Of a stretch of 64,000 nucleotides of DNA, positions 4,738-57,863 are shown piece by piece (the stretch's first letter is position 1; every line of letters begins with the position of its first letter). The stretch is taken from sequence record MZ311865.1, one strand, 5' to 3'. A program made the translations under genes and the position numbers. This DNA is from Escherichia phage vB_EcoM_LNA2. The notes under the pieces are model-generated. The model did not search any database. It saw only the letters and a list, made by a program, of their open reading frames with translations, and had not been told where the DNA came from.

Positions 4738-4872
4738 TTTACCATACTCGTTTCAATAAGATTCACTATGCCGTTTACCATGTTATAAGTAAACATCGGA
4801 TAATTGTATTGTACTACAACATAAGCGATAAGCAAAAGTTTCATTTTGTTCTCCGTTCGTTTTGATAGGACT

Positions 4873-4902
4873 ACTATAACATAGTCCTATCAAGTTGTAA
4901 AC
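4873..4902 (-). promoter_or_regulatory. T4-type early promoter with -10 embedded in a palindrome
   Basis: Minus strand GTTTAC, 18 bp, TATAGT; the -10 sits inside the inverted repeat ataggactaCTATAACATagtcctat. Confidence 0.6.
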
Positions 4903-5354: not shown

Positions 5355-5365
5355 TGCTAAATGCC

Positions 5366-5395
5366 AAAAAGCCCCAACCTTTCGGAAGGGGCTAT
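5366..5395 (-). terminator. hairpin terminator after rI
   Basis: aaaaagccccaacctttcggaaggggctat; GC stem with a U-run on the minus-strand transcript; identical 30-mer at 21363-21392. Confidence 0.55.
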
Positions 5396-15612: not shown

Positions 15613-15638
15613 AATATTCTCCTCAAGTTGATAGGACT

Positions 15639-15668
15639 ACTATAACATAGTCCTATAATTGTGTAAAC
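15639..15668 (-). promoter_or_regulatory. T4-type early promoter with palindrome
   Basis: GTTTAC, 18 bp, TATAGT inside the same ataggactactataacatagtcctat palindrome. Confidence 0.6.
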
Positions 15669-16917: not shown

Positions 16918-16933
16918 TTAATTTGATAGGACT

Positions 16934-16963
16934 ACTATAACATAGTCCTATCTTATTGTAAAC
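16934..16963 (-). promoter_or_regulatory. T4-type early promoter with palindrome
   Basis: GTTTAC, 18 bp, TATAGT inside the ataggactactataacatagtcctat palindrome. Confidence 0.6.
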
Positions 16964-20044: not shown

Positions 20045-20209
20045 TTAGATGTAAATTATTTCAACGTCACCTTTAGCGGCTTTATAACCTTCAGCCCAAG
20101 ATACAACAGAGTTTTTATCTGAGGATTCAAATTCAGGCATTGGGCTTTCGCCAATGTTCACACAGTATGTTTCTTCATTTTCGTCAAACCAAATAATTAA
20201 AGTAGTCAT
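20045..20209 (-). CDS. small hypothetical protein (54 aa)
   Basis: Hand translation MTTLIIWFDENEETYCVNIGESPMPEFESSDKNSVVSWAEGYKAAKGDVEIIYI; GGAG RBS; shares its promoter/leader cassette with the gene at 56210-56479. Confidence 0.4.
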   Translation of the reverse strand: MTTLIIWFDENEETYCVNIGESPMPEFESSDKNSVVSWAEGYKAAKGDVEIIYI

Positions 20210-20276
20210 TTTGTTTACTCCACTGTAGTTGATAAGTCTATAGTATCACCATCCTTGGTGCTTGTACATCATTATT

Positions 20277-21318: not shown

Positions 21319-21362
21319 TGATGGTCCTTAGAAAGTAGGTTTATTGTTTACTATATTTATAC

Positions 21363-21392
21363 AAAAAAGCCCCAACCTTTCGGAAGGGGCTA
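21363..21392 (-). terminator. hairpin terminator downstream of the tRNA region
   Basis: Identical 30-mer to 5366-5395. Confidence 0.5.
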
Positions 21393-21440
21393 TGCCTTGC
21401 GGCAACCTTGTCGGGTTTCCACCTACTAGGTAAGTGTTTG

Positions 21441-23676: not shown

Positions 23677-23692
23677 TTGTTTTGATAGGACT

Positions 23693-23722
23693 ACTATAAC
23701 ATAGTCCTATCAGTATGTAAAC
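23693..23722 (-). promoter_or_regulatory. T4-type early promoter with palindrome
   Basis: GTTTAC, 18 bp, TATAGT inside the ataggactactataacatagtcctat palindrome. Confidence 0.6.
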
Positions 23723-35791: not shown

Positions 35792-36788
35792 TTCAAGTGT
35801 TATCTATCGTGCAATAGTTACATCAAAATTTAGAACAGAGAAAATGCTGAATTTTTATAATTCAGTTGGGGATGGAGATGATAAGAACTCCATTTATATT
35901 ACGTTTGGACGTTCAGAGCCTTGGGCGTCAAATGAAAATGAGGTGGGCTTCGCCCCACCTTATCCTACAGATTCTGTTCTTGGTGTTACTGATATGTGGA
36001 CCCATATGATGGGCACCGTTAAAGTTTTACCTTCAATGTTAGATTCTGTTATTCCTAGACGTGATTGGGGAGATGTGCGATATCCAGACCCTTACACGTT
36101 TAGAATTAACGATATAGTCGCATGTAATACTGCTCCGTACAACGCGACAGAAGTTGGAGCTGGTTGGTTAATTTACCGTTGTTTAGATGTCCCTGACGTA
36201 GGGCTCTGTTCAATAGAATCTTTAGATAATAAAGATGAATGTCTTAAATTGGGTGGTAAATGGACTCCGTCTGTTCGTTCTATGTCTCCTCCTGAAGGCA
36301 GAGGCGATGCTAATGGGGTTATCGAAACCGGTGATGGATATATTTGGGAATATCTTTATGAGATTCCTGCCGATGTGTCAATTAACCGTTGCACTAACGA
36401 ATATCTTGTAGTTCCATGGCCGGAAGAAATTAAAGAAGACCCCACCCGTTGGGGATATGAAAATAACTTAACTTGGCAACAAGATGACTACGGTTTGATT
36501 TACCGTGTTAAAGCTAATACGATGCGGTTTAAAGCATATTTTGATTCTGTTTATTTCCCTGAGGCAGCTTTGCCTGGTAACAAGGGTTTTAGACAGATAT
36601 CAATTATCGCAAACCCGTTAGAAGCTAAGAAAAATCCAAATGACCCTAATGTTAAAGCAGAAAAGGATTATTACGACCCTAGAGACCTGCAACGTCATTC
36701 TGGTGAAATGATTTATATGGAAAACCGACCACCTGTTATTATGGCAATGGACCAAACAGAAGAAATTAACATTTTGTTTATGTTTTAA
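35784..36788 (+). CDS. 8: baseplate wedge protein gp8
   Basis: 334 aa; followed by hairpin terminator and late promoter. Confidence 0.85.
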   Translation: MNDSSVIYRAIVTSKFRTEKMLNFYNSVGDGDDKNSIYITFGRSEPWASNENEVGFAPPYPTDSVLGVTDMWTHMMGTVKVLPSMLDSVIPRRDWGDVRYPDPYTFRINDIVACNTAPYNATEVGAGWLIYRCLDVPDVGLCSIESLDNKDECLKLGGKWTPSVRSMSPPEGRGDANGVIETGDGYIWEYLYEIPADVSINRCTNEYLVVPWPEEIKEDPTRWGYENNLTWQQDDYGLIYRVKANTMRFKAYFDSVYFPEAALPGNKGFRQISIIANPLEAKKNPNDPNVKAEKDYYDPRDLQRHSGEMIYMENRPPVIMAMDQTEEINILFMF

Positions 36789-36791
36789 TTA

Positions 36792-36815
36792 GGGAGCCTT
36801 CGGGCTCCCATTTTT
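36792..36815 (+). terminator. rho-independent terminator after gene 8
   Basis: gggagccttcgggctccc hairpin followed by TTTTT. Confidence 0.65.
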
Positions 36816-36820
36816 GTATC

Positions 36821-36828
36821 TATAAATA
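36821..36828 (+). promoter_or_regulatory. late promoter for gene 9
   Basis: Exact TATAAATA after the gp8 terminator. Confidence 0.6.
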
Positions 36829-54588: not shown

Positions 54589-56157
54589 ATGACTACTATC
54601 AAAACTAAAGCTCAGCTCGTAGACAAATGGAAAGAACTGCTGGAAGGTGAAGGCCTGCCGGAAATCGCTAATAGCAAGCAGGCTATTATCGCTAAAATCT
54701 TCGAAAACCAGGAAAAAGATTTCGAAGTATCCCCTGAATATAAAGACGAGAAAATCGCTCAGGCATTTGGTTCTTTCTTGACCGAAGCTGAAATTGGTGG
54801 TGACCATGGTTATAATGCTCAGAACATCGCAGCAGGTCAAACCTCTGGTGCAGTAACCCAAATTGGGCCGGCAGTTATGGGTATGGTTCGTCGTGCTATT
54901 CCTAATCTGATCGCTTTTGATATTTGTGGTGTTCAGCCTATGAACAGCCCGACCGGTCAGGTATTTGCTCTCCGTGCAGTATATGGTAAAGACCCTATCG
55001 CTGCTGGCGCTAAAGAAGCTTTCCATCCGATGTATGCTCCAGATGCGATGTTCTCTGGTCAGGGTGCTGCTAAGAAATTCCCAGCTCTGGCTGCTGACAC
55101 TACTACTGTTGTAGGTGATATCTATACTCACTTCTTCCAAGAAACTGGTACTGTATATCTGCAAGCTTCTGCTGTCGTAACACTTGATTCTGGTGCAACT
55201 GATGCAGCTAAATTAGATGCAGAAGTTAAGAAACAAATGGAAGCTGGTGCACTGGTAGAAATCGCTGAAGGTATGGCTACTTCTATCGCTGAACTCCAGG
55301 AAGGTTTCAACGGTTCTACCGATAACCCATGGAATGAAATGGGCTTCCGTATCGATAAACAAGTTATCGAAGCTAAATCTCGCCAGCTGAAAGCTGCTTA
55401 CTCTATCGAATTAGCACAAGACCTCCGTGCAGTACACGGTATGGATGCTGATGCTGAACTGAGCGGTATTCTGGCTACAGAAATTATGCTAGAAATCAAC
55501 CGTGAAGTTGTTGATTGGATTAACTACTCAGCACAGGTCGGTAAATCTGGTATGACCCTGACTCCTGGTTCTAAAGCTGGTGTATTTGACTTCCAGGACC
55601 CGATTGATATCCGTGGTGCTCGTTGGGCCGGTGAAAGCTTTAAATCTCTGTTGTTCCAGATTGATAAAGAAGCAGTTGAAATTGCTCGTCAAACCGGCCG
55701 TGGTGAAGGTAACTTCATTATCGCTTCCCGTAACGTAGTTAACGTACTGGCTTCAGTTGATACTGGTATTTCTTACGCTGCACAGGGTCTGGCTTCTGGT
55801 TTTAATACCGACACTACTAAGTCTGTATTTGCCGGTGTACTTGGTGGTAAATACCGCGTATACATCGACCAGTATGCTAAACAGGATTACTTCACCGTTG
55901 GTTACAAAGGCGCTAACGAAATGGATGCAGGTATTTACTATGCTCCTTACGTTGCACTTACCCCACTGCGTGGTTCCGATCCTAAGAACTTCCAGCCGGT
56001 AATGGGCTTTAAAACTCGTTACGGTATCGGTGTTAACCCGTTTGCTGAAAGTTCCCTGCAGGCTCCAGGTGCTCGCATCCAGTCCGGTATGCCGTCTATC
56101 CTGAACAGCCTTGGTAAGAACGCTTACTTCCGCCGTGTATATGTAAAAGGCATCTAA
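54589..56157 (+). CDS. 23: major capsid protein gp23
   Basis: 522 aa MTTIKTKAQLVDKWKELLEGEGLPEIANSKQAIIAKIFENQEKDF... near-identical to T4 gp23 as recalled; strong terminator downstream. Confidence 0.95.
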   Translation: MTTIKTKAQLVDKWKELLEGEGLPEIANSKQAIIAKIFENQEKDFEVSPEYKDEKIAQAFGSFLTEAEIGGDHGYNAQNIAAGQTSGAVTQIGPAVMGMVRRAIPNLIAFDICGVQPMNSPTGQVFALRAVYGKDPIAAGAKEAFHPMYAPDAMFSGQGAAKKFPALAADTTTVVGDIYTHFFQETGTVYLQASAVVTLDSGATDAAKLDAEVKKQMEAGALVEIAEGMATSIAELQEGFNGSTDNPWNEMGFRIDKQVIEAKSRQLKAAYSIELAQDLRAVHGMDADAELSGILATEIMLEINREVVDWINYSAQVGKSGMTLTPGSKAGVFDFQDPIDIRGARWAGESFKSLLFQIDKEAVEIARQTGRGEGNFIIASRNVVNVLASVDTGISYAAQGLASGFNTDTTKSVFAGVLGGKYRVYIDQYAKQDYFTVGYKGANEMDAGIYYAPYVALTPLRGSDPKNFQPVMGFKTRYGIGVNPFAESSLQAPGARIQSGMPSILNSLGKNAYFRRVYVKGI

Positions 56158-56181
56158 TCTTAATTGATTAAATCTTATTTT

Positions 56182-56210
56182 GGGAGACTTCGGTCTCCCA
56201 TTTTTGGTTT
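56182..56210 (+). terminator. rho-independent terminator after gene 23
   Basis: gggagacttcggtctccc hairpin followed by a T-run. Confidence 0.7.
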
Positions 56211-56479
56211 TATTTCTGTGCAATTTTGATGTAAGTTTTCAAAATATTTTGCCAATTAGGCATACCTTCTTGGACATATGCCGGAGAACCGTCTTTGTTT
56301 TTGAATGATGCAAGTTTATCAGTGGCCCAATAACCTTTAGCTCGAGCTTCAGAATCAACTTTCATCCATACTTTGTTGAAGGCATTACCATTAACTTTTG
56401 CACTATATTTTTCTACTAACTTAACTGCTTCAGCTTCCAGAACTTTTAAAGTATCTCGTAAGAAACGTGCTTTAGTCAT
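56210..56479 (-). CDS. hypothetical early protein (89 aa) encoded antisense between genes 23 and 24
   Basis: ATG at 56479 with GGAG RBS and its own early promoter (56510-56539); occupies the slot where T4 carries segD. Confidence 0.55.
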   Translation of the reverse strand: MTKARFLRDTLKVLEAEAVKLVEKYSAKVNGNAFNKVWMKVDSEARAKGYWATDKLASFKNKDGSPAYVQEGMPNWQNILKTYIKIAQK

Positions 56480-56509
56480 TTTGTTTACTCCTCTGTAGTT
56501 GATAAGTTT

Positions 56510-56539
56510 ATAGTATCACATACTAAATACGTTGTAAAC
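56510..56539 (-). promoter_or_regulatory. T4-type early promoter driving the antisense gene between 23 and 24
   Basis: GTTTAC, 18 bp, TACTAT; divergent from the gp24 late promoter 7 bp away. Confidence 0.55.
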
Positions 56540-56545
56540 AATCTT

Positions 56546-56553
56546 TATAAATA
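56546..56553 (+). promoter_or_regulatory. late promoter for gene 24
   Basis: Exact TATAAATA about 27 nt upstream of the gp24 ATG. Confidence 0.6.
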
Positions 56554-56579: not shown

Positions 56580-57863
56580 ATGAGTAAAATCCAAAAATTA
56601 TTGCGTGAATCTACAACGTCTACTAGCAACTCAATTGGTCGCCCAAATCTCGTTGCTTTGACTCGCGCTACGACTAAATTAATATATTCTGACATTGTAG
56701 CAACACAAAGAACTAATCAACCTGTTGCTGCTTTTTATGGTATCAAATATCTTAACCCAGATAACGAATTCACATTTAAAACTGGTGCTACTTATGCAGG
56801 CGAAGTTGGATATGTAGACCGAGAAAAAATTACCGAACTCACAGAAGAATCAAAAGTCACACTAAATAAAGGTGATTTTTTCAAATATAATAATATCGTC
56901 TATAAGGTGTTAGAAGATACACCATTTGCAGATATTCAAGAAAGTGATCTAGAATTAGCTCTTCAGATTGCAGTCGTTCATTTAAAGGTACGGTTATTTT
57001 CAGATGCAGCGGTAACAAGCAAATTTGAAAGCTCTGATAGCGAAATTTCTGATGCAAGATTCCAGATTAATAAATGGCAAACTTCAGTCAAATCTCGTAA
57101 ACTTAAAACTGGCCTCACGGTCGAATTAGCGCAAGATTTGGAAGCGAATGGATTTGATGCCCCTAACTTCTTAGAAGATTTGCTTGCTACTGAAATGGCC
57201 GATGAAATTAATAAAGATATTCTTCAGTCTTTAATTACTGTATCGAAACGTTATAAAGTTACTGGAATTACTGACACCGGATTTATTGACTTGAGTTATG
57301 CATCAGCTCCAGAAGCAGGTCGTTCATTATATCGAATGGTGTGTGAAATGGTATCACACATTCAAAAAGAGACAACTTATACTGCAACGTTTTGTGTAGC
57401 CTCAGCTCGTGCAGCTGCTATTCTTGCTGCTTCCGGTTGGTTAAAACATAAGCCAGAAGATGACAAGTATCTTTCACAAAATGCTTATGGATTCTTGGCA
57501 AATGGATTACCTCTTTACTGCGATACCAACAGCCCGTTAGATTATGTTATTGTGGGTGTTGTAGAAAATCTCGGCGAAAAAGAAATTGTAGGGTCCATCT
57601 TTTATGCTCCATACACTGAAGGAGTAGATTTAGATGACCCAGAACATGTTGGTGCATTTAAAGTTGTAGTTGATCCAGAAAGCTTGCAACCGTCTATCGG
57701 ATTATTGGTTAGATATGCTTTATCAGCAAATCCTTACACAGTAGCAAAAGATGAAAAAGAAGCGAGAATAATTGATGGCGGGGACATGGATAAAATGGCA
57801 GGACGTTCAGACTTGTCTGTTTTATTAGGTGTTAAACTACCAAAAATTATCATTGATGAATAA
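56580..57863 (+). CDS. 24: capsid vertex protein gp24
   Basis: 427 aa; late promoter at 56546; bidirectional terminator downstream. Confidence 0.9.
   Translation: MSKIQKLLRESTTSTSNSIGRPNLVALTRATTKLIYSDIVATQRTNQPVAAFYGIKYLNPDNEFTFKTGATYAGEVGYVDREKITELTEESKVTLNKGDFFKYNNIVYKVLEDTPFADIQESDLELALQIAVVHLKVRLFSDAAVTSKFESSDSEISDARFQINKWQTSVKSRKLKTGLTVELAQDLEANGFDAPNFLEDLLATEMADEINKDILQSLITVSKRYKVTGITDTGFIDLSYASAPEAGRSLYRMVCEMVSHIQKETTYTATFCVASARAAAILAASGWLKHKPEDDKYLSQNAYGFLANGLPLYCDTNSPLDYVIVGVVENLGEKEIVGSIFYAPYTEGVDLDDPEHVGAFKVVVDPESLQPSIGLLVRYALSANPYTVAKDEKEARIIDGGDMDKMAGRSDLSVLLGVKLPKIIIDE

Follow-up and report, generated by a model that had tools for sequence, protein, structure and literature searches.

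The window analysed here (64,000 nucleotides of Escherichia phage vB_EcoM_LNA2, record MZ311865.1) comes from a T4-type phage of the genus Mosigvirus (RB69-like). Between its major capsid gene 23 and gene 24 lies a gap of 422 bp, inside which a single minus-strand ORF is found (Table 1). An earlier sequence-only reading of this DNA had placed an antisense 89-aa gene in a gap of about 420 bp at the site where T4 carries segD; the comparison with T4 bears this out, segD being likewise antisense. The 521 bases around the feature, used as query in a DNA search, gave 120 matching phage records at a coverage of 80% or more. The best matches listed, PhAPEC2 and APCEc01 among them, are about 99% identical, and in PhAPEC2 the ORF is annotated as 'hypothetical protein, similar to RB69ORF188c'. 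Our literature search found neither a paper discussing this ORF nor transcriptome data for segD or any Mosigvirus.

The core of the gp23 terminator hairpin is identical in phages JS98, LF82-3, IME08 and 04086 and in the metagenomic contigs L007 and L009, and the 3' end of gene 23 carries in the window the endonuclease-free codon variant TAC TTC CGC CGT GTA TAT discussed below. On the opposite side of the gap, the gp24 late promoter has a counterpart in RB69, the predicted Pl:109573, which overlaps a predicted early promoter (Nolan et al. 2006, PMC1524935 supplement). In the window the early and the late promoter stand back to back on opposite strands, the -35 box of the former being 7 nt from the latter, so the canonical early promoter divergent from the late promoter of gp24 that the sequence-only reading had described is indeed present. 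The G preceding the -35 box yields the T4 early -35 motif GTTTAC. A simple promoter scan of the region gave no enrichment (3 found versus 4.0 expected in shuffles), and the stronger evidence is comparative: the -35 box, the TG-extended -10 box and their 17-nt spacing are conserved at 12 divergent loci, where the spacer sequence itself varies freely. The orthologous early promoter of RB69 was predicted in 2006 (Pe:109605, score 29.9; Nolan et al., PMC1524935 supplement). The promoter sequence suggests that the gene is of the early type.

The leader is short and unstructured, its 5' end (56503) being inferred from the position of the -10 box. RegB of T4 is specific for GGAG (PMC3014915), and by analogy the GGAG of this leader is a plausible candidate substrate. 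At the other end of the gene, the gp23 terminator hairpin lies about 10 nt past the stop of the ORF. Read on the minus strand it would form the 3' hairpin of the ORF's mRNA, with an A-run after it in place of a U-run. The scan called no terminator on this strand, the gp23 terminator being the one hairpin between 55500 and 57000.

Table 1. Positions of the features discussed (window coordinates unless another locus is named)
Feature	Position	Strand	Remarks
gp23 (major capsid)	54589-56157		
gene 23 3' end	56105..56157	+	left boundary of the exchangeable segment
gp23 intrinsic terminator hairpin	56181..56200	+	GGGAGACTTCGGTCTCCC, then T-run
89-aa ORF	56210..56479	-	ATG start; intact ortholog of RB69ORF188c/189c; 'A' allele of phrog_6003
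5' leader	56480..56503	-	Shine-Dalgarno GGAG 56488-56491, 8 nt before the ATG; LF82-3 crossover zone
T4-type early (sigma-70) promoter	56510..56538	-	TTTACA-17-TACTAT with TG extension; -35 (G)TTTACA 56533-56538, 17-nt spacer, TG 56517-56518, -10 TACTAT 56510-56515
gp24 late promoter	56546..56553	+	TATAAATA; right boundary of the slot; read from sequence
gp24	56580-57863		
shared block, copy 1	56473..56519	-	GTGATACTATAAACTTATCAACTACAGAGGAGTAAACAAAATGACTA; repeat family D3
shared block, copy 2	20203..20249	-	45/47 identical; precedes the 54-aa ORF
54-aa ORF	20045-20209	-	RB69ORF145c homolog, phrog_5461; e.x/tRNA hyperplastic region
ORF(C)+endonuclease unit	L021 3001-3930; also L035, L036, L037 and L004 2501-3442		

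The 89-aa product and its family

The product matches the PHROGs profile phrog_6003 (E=1.4e-44, residues 1-89 of the 90-position profile), a family without functional annotation from which the window ORF shows no differences. In agreement with the sequence-only reading, Pfam detects no GIY-YIG or HNH domain in the window protein or in any of 25 family members, and there is no similarity to SegD. Identity with DUF4859 was rejected (E=0.0013, below its cut-off, with 2 of the 25 members matching in Pfam). A match of residues 41-70 to a 655-aa protein with five cytochrome-b5-like repeats, P0013 (WATDKLASFKNKDGSPAYVQ versus WTTEKLAVYNGKNNQPAYIAV, E=1.6e-5), is treated as a chance one because the motif is absent from clades B and C of the family, which are introduced below. 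The NCBIfam search gave nothing meaningful, the profile search of PDB sequences gave nothing, a Foldseek search of the PDB with a first, weaker model gave no match at E<=0.001, and the BFVD structure search returned solely a member of the same family. In none of Pfam, NCBIfam, PDB and BFVD was a sequence or fold relative of known function found.

The AlphaFold2 model built from 25 sequences is a confident one (pLDDT 94.6, pTM 0.81). It predicts a three-helix bundle with a beta-hairpin (helices 3-25, 31-48 and 76-88, hairpin 52-70), for which no informative structural relative was found. The 10-kDa product is basic (pI 9.8, net charge about +7.5). Among the 25 homologs the length is kept and M1, K3, F6, G31, N32, N35 and Q70 are invariant, and the dN/dS ratio is 0.14 between the window and L007 and 0.11 between JS98 and VR20. 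The low dN/dS, the conserved length and motifs and the confident model together indicate that the ORF is a real gene under purifying selection.

A tblastn search found the family in 239 phage records, 119 of them at 90% amino acid identity or more (Mosigvirus) and all others below 60%, about 119 of these lying at 30-37%. In Mosigvirus the gene is present in about 120 records at 95% amino acid identity or more. A divergent allele (30-36% amino acid identity) occupies the same slot in the same orientation in Dhakavirus (JS98, 04086) and Gaprivervirus (VR20), and so do versions 61-69% identical in the contigs L007 and L009. The family is tiny: it accounts for about 30 of 5.8 billion clusters in one search and for 7 of 1.84 billion representatives in another. 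In a neighbour-joining tree resting on only 83-93 residues it falls into clade A (Mosigvirus type), clade C (Dhakavirus and Gaprivervirus type) and a clade B between them; members of clades B and C match phrog_6003 too, as do therefore all three clades. Clade B consists of unrelated phages that carry the gene in sense-oriented arrays of small early genes, namely a 141-kb contig about 88% identical to Vequintavirinae-type phages, a 46-kb contig with the gene beside a D5-type primase and Ead/Ea22, and a 75-kb contig without match. Two side observations concern L007: its 90-aa family member (P0006, contig k123_278436) bears the JGI name 'NADPH-dependent curcumin reductase CurA', an evident mis-annotation, and the contig has two tandem copies of gp24, like Dhakavirus and Gaprivervirus.

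The occurrence in some 120 Mosigvirus records, and of a divergent allele in the same slot of two other genera, indicates that the gene is a long-resident one and not a recent insertion. At the same time it is not a conserved core gene of all relatives, many of which have an empty slot. RB69 has the gene split by two frameshifts into ORF188c (41 aa) and ORF189c (29 aa), and phage mogra also has a split copy. In RB69 one nucleotide has been deleted and one inserted, and the sequence between the two sites is divergent (L018 3792-4032, RB69 109291-109531). Since the gene is frameshifted in RB69, split in mogra and missing from the slot of RB3, JD18 and most T4-like records, it can be regarded as dispensable, accessory and non-core. 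Its accessory nature, already proposed in the sequence-only reading, agrees also with the empty slot of most Tequatrovirus and of Jiaodavirus and with the presence of the family in unrelated phages. The small size, the charge, the early promoter, the rapid divergence and the spread among unrelated phages lead us to guess that the product may be a small binder of a host or phage macromolecule acting in host takeover or counter-defence.

The repeated promoter-leader block

The 45-mer at 56475-56519 recurs at 20205-20249 with 2 mismatches, and no match of this kind was obtained in 100 shuffles. The nearly verbatim recurrence of a regulatory block of about 45 bp in front of an unrelated 54-aa ORF, noted in the sequence-only reading, is thus real, BLASTP showing no relation between the ORFs behind the two copies. 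The alignment limits the identity, however, to the tract from the TG-extended -10 box through the ATG region, ending at the start or second codon; the -35 box is excluded from it, and the -35 regions at the two loci are unrelated. The promoter of the RB69 ORF145c is another of those predicted by Nolan et al. in 2006 (Pe:72567; PMC1524935 supplement). The ORF145c copies of RB69 and SA35RD are 100% identical over 45 nt to the ORF188c copy of PhAPEC2, and the pairing of the two leaders is genus-wide.

Weaker relatives of the block (80-86%) stand upstream of cef, alc, denV and other genes in several genera, and the early promoters of the window form stereotyped families, D1-D4. In view of these two facts the pair is an outlier within a loose family of early promoter-leader modules. 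Both facts would also suit a history in which the two loci never recombined and each converged on the best sequence for an early promoter, leader and ribosome-binding site. We give this explanation only a small chance of being correct, since the pair agrees at 45 of 47 positions and every other site on both strands of the window at no more than 31 of 47 (the next best site), since the identity covers positions that differ in all orthologous leaders (L007, L009, JS98, VR20 and the Tequatrovirus ORF145c), and since the agreement between the PhAPEC2 and the RB69 and SA35RD copies is complete. The identity of the ORF188c and ORF145c leaders is best read as the result of recombination or gene conversion between two joints. 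Both candidate ancestral leaders contain TACAGA, and the comparison of orthologous leaders favours neither locus as the donor.

Several further observations were made on repeated elements of the window. The segment 20050-20277, which comprises ORF145c and its promoter, has 87-88% DNA identity to Tequatrovirus (Shfl2p133 = RB14 orf134) and is apparently closer to this genus than the surrounding sequence, which suggests that the ORF145c module may have been exchanged between genera; the Tequatrovirus leader of ORF145c differs between the -10 box and the ATG. In several early promoters of families D1 and D4 (4857-4890, 15623-15656, 16918-16951 and 23677-23710) the -10 box is flanked by the arms of a perfect 10-bp inverted repeat (GATAGGACTA-CTATAACA-TAGTCCTATC), which places the promoter within a potential hairpin or cruciform. 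Terminator hairpins likewise occur in distant pairs, 5361-5395 with 21359-21393 (94% identical, D7) and 36774-36823 with 56164-56213 (78%, D11); such short repeated modules could be possible recombination substrates.

Gene exchange in the slot between genes 23 and 24

The comparison of the 23-24 intergenic region across T4-like genomes revealed the following states of the slot: empty (most Tequatrovirus, and Jiaodavirus), segD (T4), allele A, allele C, and allele C with a segD-like endonuclease gene. A distance of 17-18 nt separates the gp23 terminator from the gp24 late promoter in RB3 (Tequatrovirus) and JD18 (Jiaodavirus), which have neither a gene nor an early promoter there. Most T4-like records are without any insert, and of 921 records matching the T4 23-segD-24 region 53 cover at least 80% of it, i.e. 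contain segD. The gp23 and gp24 of the window are both 95% identical to those of T4 at the amino acid level and 84% and 70% identical, respectively, to those of JS98; with flanks nearer to T4 than to JS98, the occupancy of the slot does not follow the phylogeny of the flanking genes. Between JS98 and L007 gp23 and gp24 are 92% and 94% identical in amino acids and the ORF 29.5%. In DNA the two are 80-97% identical on either side of the slot and about 40-50% in exactly the interval bounded by the terminator hairpin and the late promoter. These data indicate that the slot is a hot spot of repeated gene exchange. As a separate observation, two IMG/VR T4-like contigs (L029 4119-5633, minus strand, and L031) have a 504-aa antisense ORF in the slot, with a weak PD-(D/E)xK-type match (PF18741, E=3e-4, below cut-off), which is probably another type of homing endonuclease.

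One exchange can be reconstructed. LF82-3 is a Mosigvirus whose gp23 and gp24 are 100% and 97.9% identical in amino acids to those of the window; its ORF is a C allele, 93% identical to that of JS98 and 32% to that of the window, and is followed after 4 nt by a gene for a 219-aa segD-like endonuclease with 58.5% amino acid identity to T4 SegD. The DNA of the two phages is about 100% identical up to about 56105 and then falls. Read from the other side, LF82-3 is of Mosigvirus type in gene 24, the promoter and the -10 box, down to GAGGAG in the leader; past this motif the ATG, the ORF, the endonuclease gene, the terminator and the last 30-50 nt or so of gene 23 are of JS98 type. It would appear that the C allele with the endonuclease gene replaced allele A, one of the crossovers having occurred in the leader at the ribosome-binding site. 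The position of this crossover indicates that the ORF is the cargo and that it is exchanged at the promoter-leader block, which serves as the recombination joint.

The C allele and the GIY-YIG endonuclease gene, 4 nt apart, form a two-gene early unit in 38 records assigned by NCBI to Dhakavirus, Mosigvirus and, in one case (F2), 'Tequatrovirus'. The DNA of the unit is 89-98% identical across backgrounds in which gp23 and gp24 are 63-82% identical, and IME08, with the endonuclease gene, is otherwise 97-99% identical to JS98, which is without it. Escherichia phage F2 (L036, NC_054913, Tequatrovirus efftwo) itself has gp23/gp24 DNA 97-98% identical to the window and 87-88% to T4, so that either its head region may be mosaic or its genus assignment is questionable. 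The LF82-3 pattern is what would be expected from endonuclease homing with co-conversion of flanking DNA, and the segD-like endonuclease was probably the driver of the swap, a link that covers allele C in other genomes and not allele A of the window, in whose slot no endonuclease gene is present.

The last 10 codons of gene 23 (56128-56157 in the window) may bear a trace of this process. In endonuclease-free genomes of four genera they read TAC TTC CGY CGY GTA TAT, and by hand comparison all 6 endonuclease-carrying genomes examined (gp23 3' ends at L011, L021, L036, L037, L035 and L004) have synonymous changes there: TTT AGA in T4, LF82-3, F2 and 005, and GTT TAC or GTT TAT in IME08 and 04086. 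IMG/VR pattern scans for the codon variant returned few relevant contigs, the endonuclease-type pattern matching unrelated DNA. The target of SegD is listed as unknown (PMC2988022), and these codons are a candidate target or immunity site of the SegD family. The wider idea that homing endonucleases make the slot an exchange point, through which different genera trade alternative alleles of a fast-evolving early protein of host interaction (counter-defence, for example), with the target or immunity site of the SegD family in the last 10 codons of gene 23, is a tentative one that we think unlikely on present evidence. If true, it would identify a target of SegD for the first time and would explain by selection why this ORFan family has an orphan fold and three deeply divergent clades.

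These data also bear on the mobile early cassette, carrying an accessory gene into the structural module, that the sequence-only reading had proposed. Part of the proposal stands: the gene is accessory and of early type, the slot is prone to exchange, and the promoter-leader may serve as a recombination substrate of the PeSL type (see below). A self-contained promoter-plus-gene unit that was recently inserted and seeded a copy of its regulatory end at 20.2 kb is, on the other hand, very improbable. The empty slots of RB3 and JD18, where the terminator leads directly to the late promoter, the near-identical regulatory block at the second locus and the family members in unrelated phages would suit such a unit; against it stand the residence of the gene in the same slot of about 120 Mosigvirus records (at 95% amino acid identity or more) and of two other genera, the lack of the -35 box and of the gene itself in the shared block, and the absence of flanking repeats and of a recombinase. 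The LF82-3 junction largely refutes this model: in the one swap that can be reconstructed the promoter did not travel with its gene, as had been supposed, but stayed in place, and the ORF that moved did so together with the segD-like endonuclease gene.

Interpretation and comparison with known systems

The explanation that we favour, and hold to be probable, is that of a resident non-essential early gene in a recombination-prone slot, the cargo of which is exchanged by homologous recombination. Under this explanation the host sigma-70 RNA polymerase would start at the early promoter right after infection, the short leader would supply the GGAG ribosome-binding site and the basic protein would be translated. 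The transcript may end at the gp23 terminator hairpin in reverse or be stabilised by it, and expression would stop with the shut-off of early promoters, possibly aided by RegB cleavage at GGAG. The product, which has no enzymatic motif, would most likely bind a host or phage macromolecule. The crossovers that exchange the cargo of the slot fall in the conserved promoter-leader and in the last 50 nt or so of gene 23, and at least one exchange went together with a segD-like GIY-YIG homing endonuclease gene that stands immediately behind the C allele. The identity of 45-47 bp with the region upstream of ORF145c is then read as a footprint of recombination or gene conversion of this kind between early promoter-leader modules, such as is known from the PeSLs treated below, and not as the mark of a transposable unit.

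A function at the RNA level, with the ORF incidental and the early transcript acting as an antisense to gene 23 or interfering with the gp24 late promoter, also has very little chance of being correct. It could be prompted by the antisense orientation of the ORF to the late flanking genes, by the minus-strand hairpin that is followed by an A-run and not by a U-tract with no terminator called on this strand, by the 7-nt distance of the early -35 box from the late promoter in every occupied slot, and by the retention of the promoter in RB69 despite the frameshifted ORF. The purifying selection on the protein, its confident fold model and its homologs in sense-oriented early arrays of unrelated phages nevertheless argue for a function of the product, and many phages live without the whole unit. 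Least probable of all is that the protein is a functional partner (a regulator, a specificity or a protection factor) of the segD-like endonuclease: the two form one early operon in 38 records, and in T4 this slot holds segD, with a promoter-like site at the equivalent position in front of it, but the endonuclease gene is lacking in most phages that have a member of the family, among them the window phage, JS98, VR20 and the 120 or so Mosigvirus records, T4 has segD without the ORF, the members in unrelated phages have no adjacent nuclease gene, and free-standing endonuclease genes typically invade beside pre-existing genes.

Returning to the resident gene with exchangeable alleles, the finding alone changes little, being that of an annotated hypothetical gene with an already predicted promoter. 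The ORF is annotated in more than 200 genomes, the promoter was predicted in 2006, and both shuffling of the PeSL type and endonuclease co-conversion are established; what appears to be new is the specific picture of the 23-24 slot and the reconstruction of the LF82-3 swap. The value of the case lies in its being a clean and reconstructable example of T-even-type phages swapping small early genes within a rigid structural module, in which a promoter-leader acts as portable homology. As a compact phage-only family with an orphan fold, under purifying selection and spread over at least three unrelated phage groups, phrog_6003 is for these very reasons a reasonable candidate for host-takeover or counter-defence screens.

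The closest parallel to the promoter-leader block is found in the PeSLs, the promoter-early stem-loop cassettes that together with their associated ORFans occur in T4-type phages (Arbiol et al. 2010, PMC2839356; Comeau et al. 2014, PMC4122927). The PeSL early promoter consensus in the T4/PST group is TTTACW-N17-TAYWAT, and the promoter of the window, with TTTACA-17-TACTAT and its TG, is a sigma-70-like early promoter of this kind. As with PeSLs, the small ORFan is non-essential and has a strong early promoter in front of it, the promoter-leader recurs almost unchanged at another locus, and the position inside the conserved core has precedents in PeSL elements occasionally found there beside plastic genes. 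Arbiol et al. (PMC2839356) located the crossovers that yield PeSL mini-circles in the stretch from the -10 box to the ribosome-binding site or ATG, and the LF82-3 junction at GAGGAG falls within this very zone. Unlike a PeSL, however, the window element has no defining stem-loop directly upstream of the promoter, where the gp24 late promoter stands instead, and its one hairpin, the gp23 terminator, lies downstream of the ORF. There are two near-identical copies only, and they are direct repeats 36 kb apart with essential genes between them, because of which the excision of a mini-circle between the copies would not be viable. By analogy, then, the element may work like a PeSL-associated ORFan, and is not a strict member of the PeSL group.

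The second system to be compared is the segD gene of T4, which lies between genes 23 and 24 and encodes a free-standing homing endonuclease of the GIY-YIG type (Edgell et al. 2010, PMC2988022). The slot, the antisense orientation and the presence/absence polymorphism are common to both genes, both have a promoter-like site equally far from the gp24 late promoter, and in 38 genomes a segD-like gene directly follows the C allele of our family. The window ORF does occupy a polymorphic intergenic position, as a homing endonuclease gene would, a property which alone does not define that family; it differs from segD in length (89 versus 223 aa) and in the lack of a nuclease domain, being a cargo or a neighbour rather than the mobile agent. 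On segD itself, the review states that no segD-specific promoter could be identified (PMC2988022), and we observe in front of the gene a TG-extended site, TTTACA-17-TATTAT (10 of 12 matches; L011 2754-2782, minus strand, T4 NC_000866 at about 107253-107281).

Co-conversion of flanking markers by T-even homing endonucleases has the SegB, SegG and MobE systems as its paradigms (PMC2988022), and a further paper is, by its title, on the same subject (PMC10448857). The LF82-3 case differs from these in being known from genome comparison alone. It resembles them in the replaced tract itself: this starts within the final codons of a conserved gene, extends a few hundred bp past the endonuclease gene and is set in a background that is otherwise about 97-100% identical.
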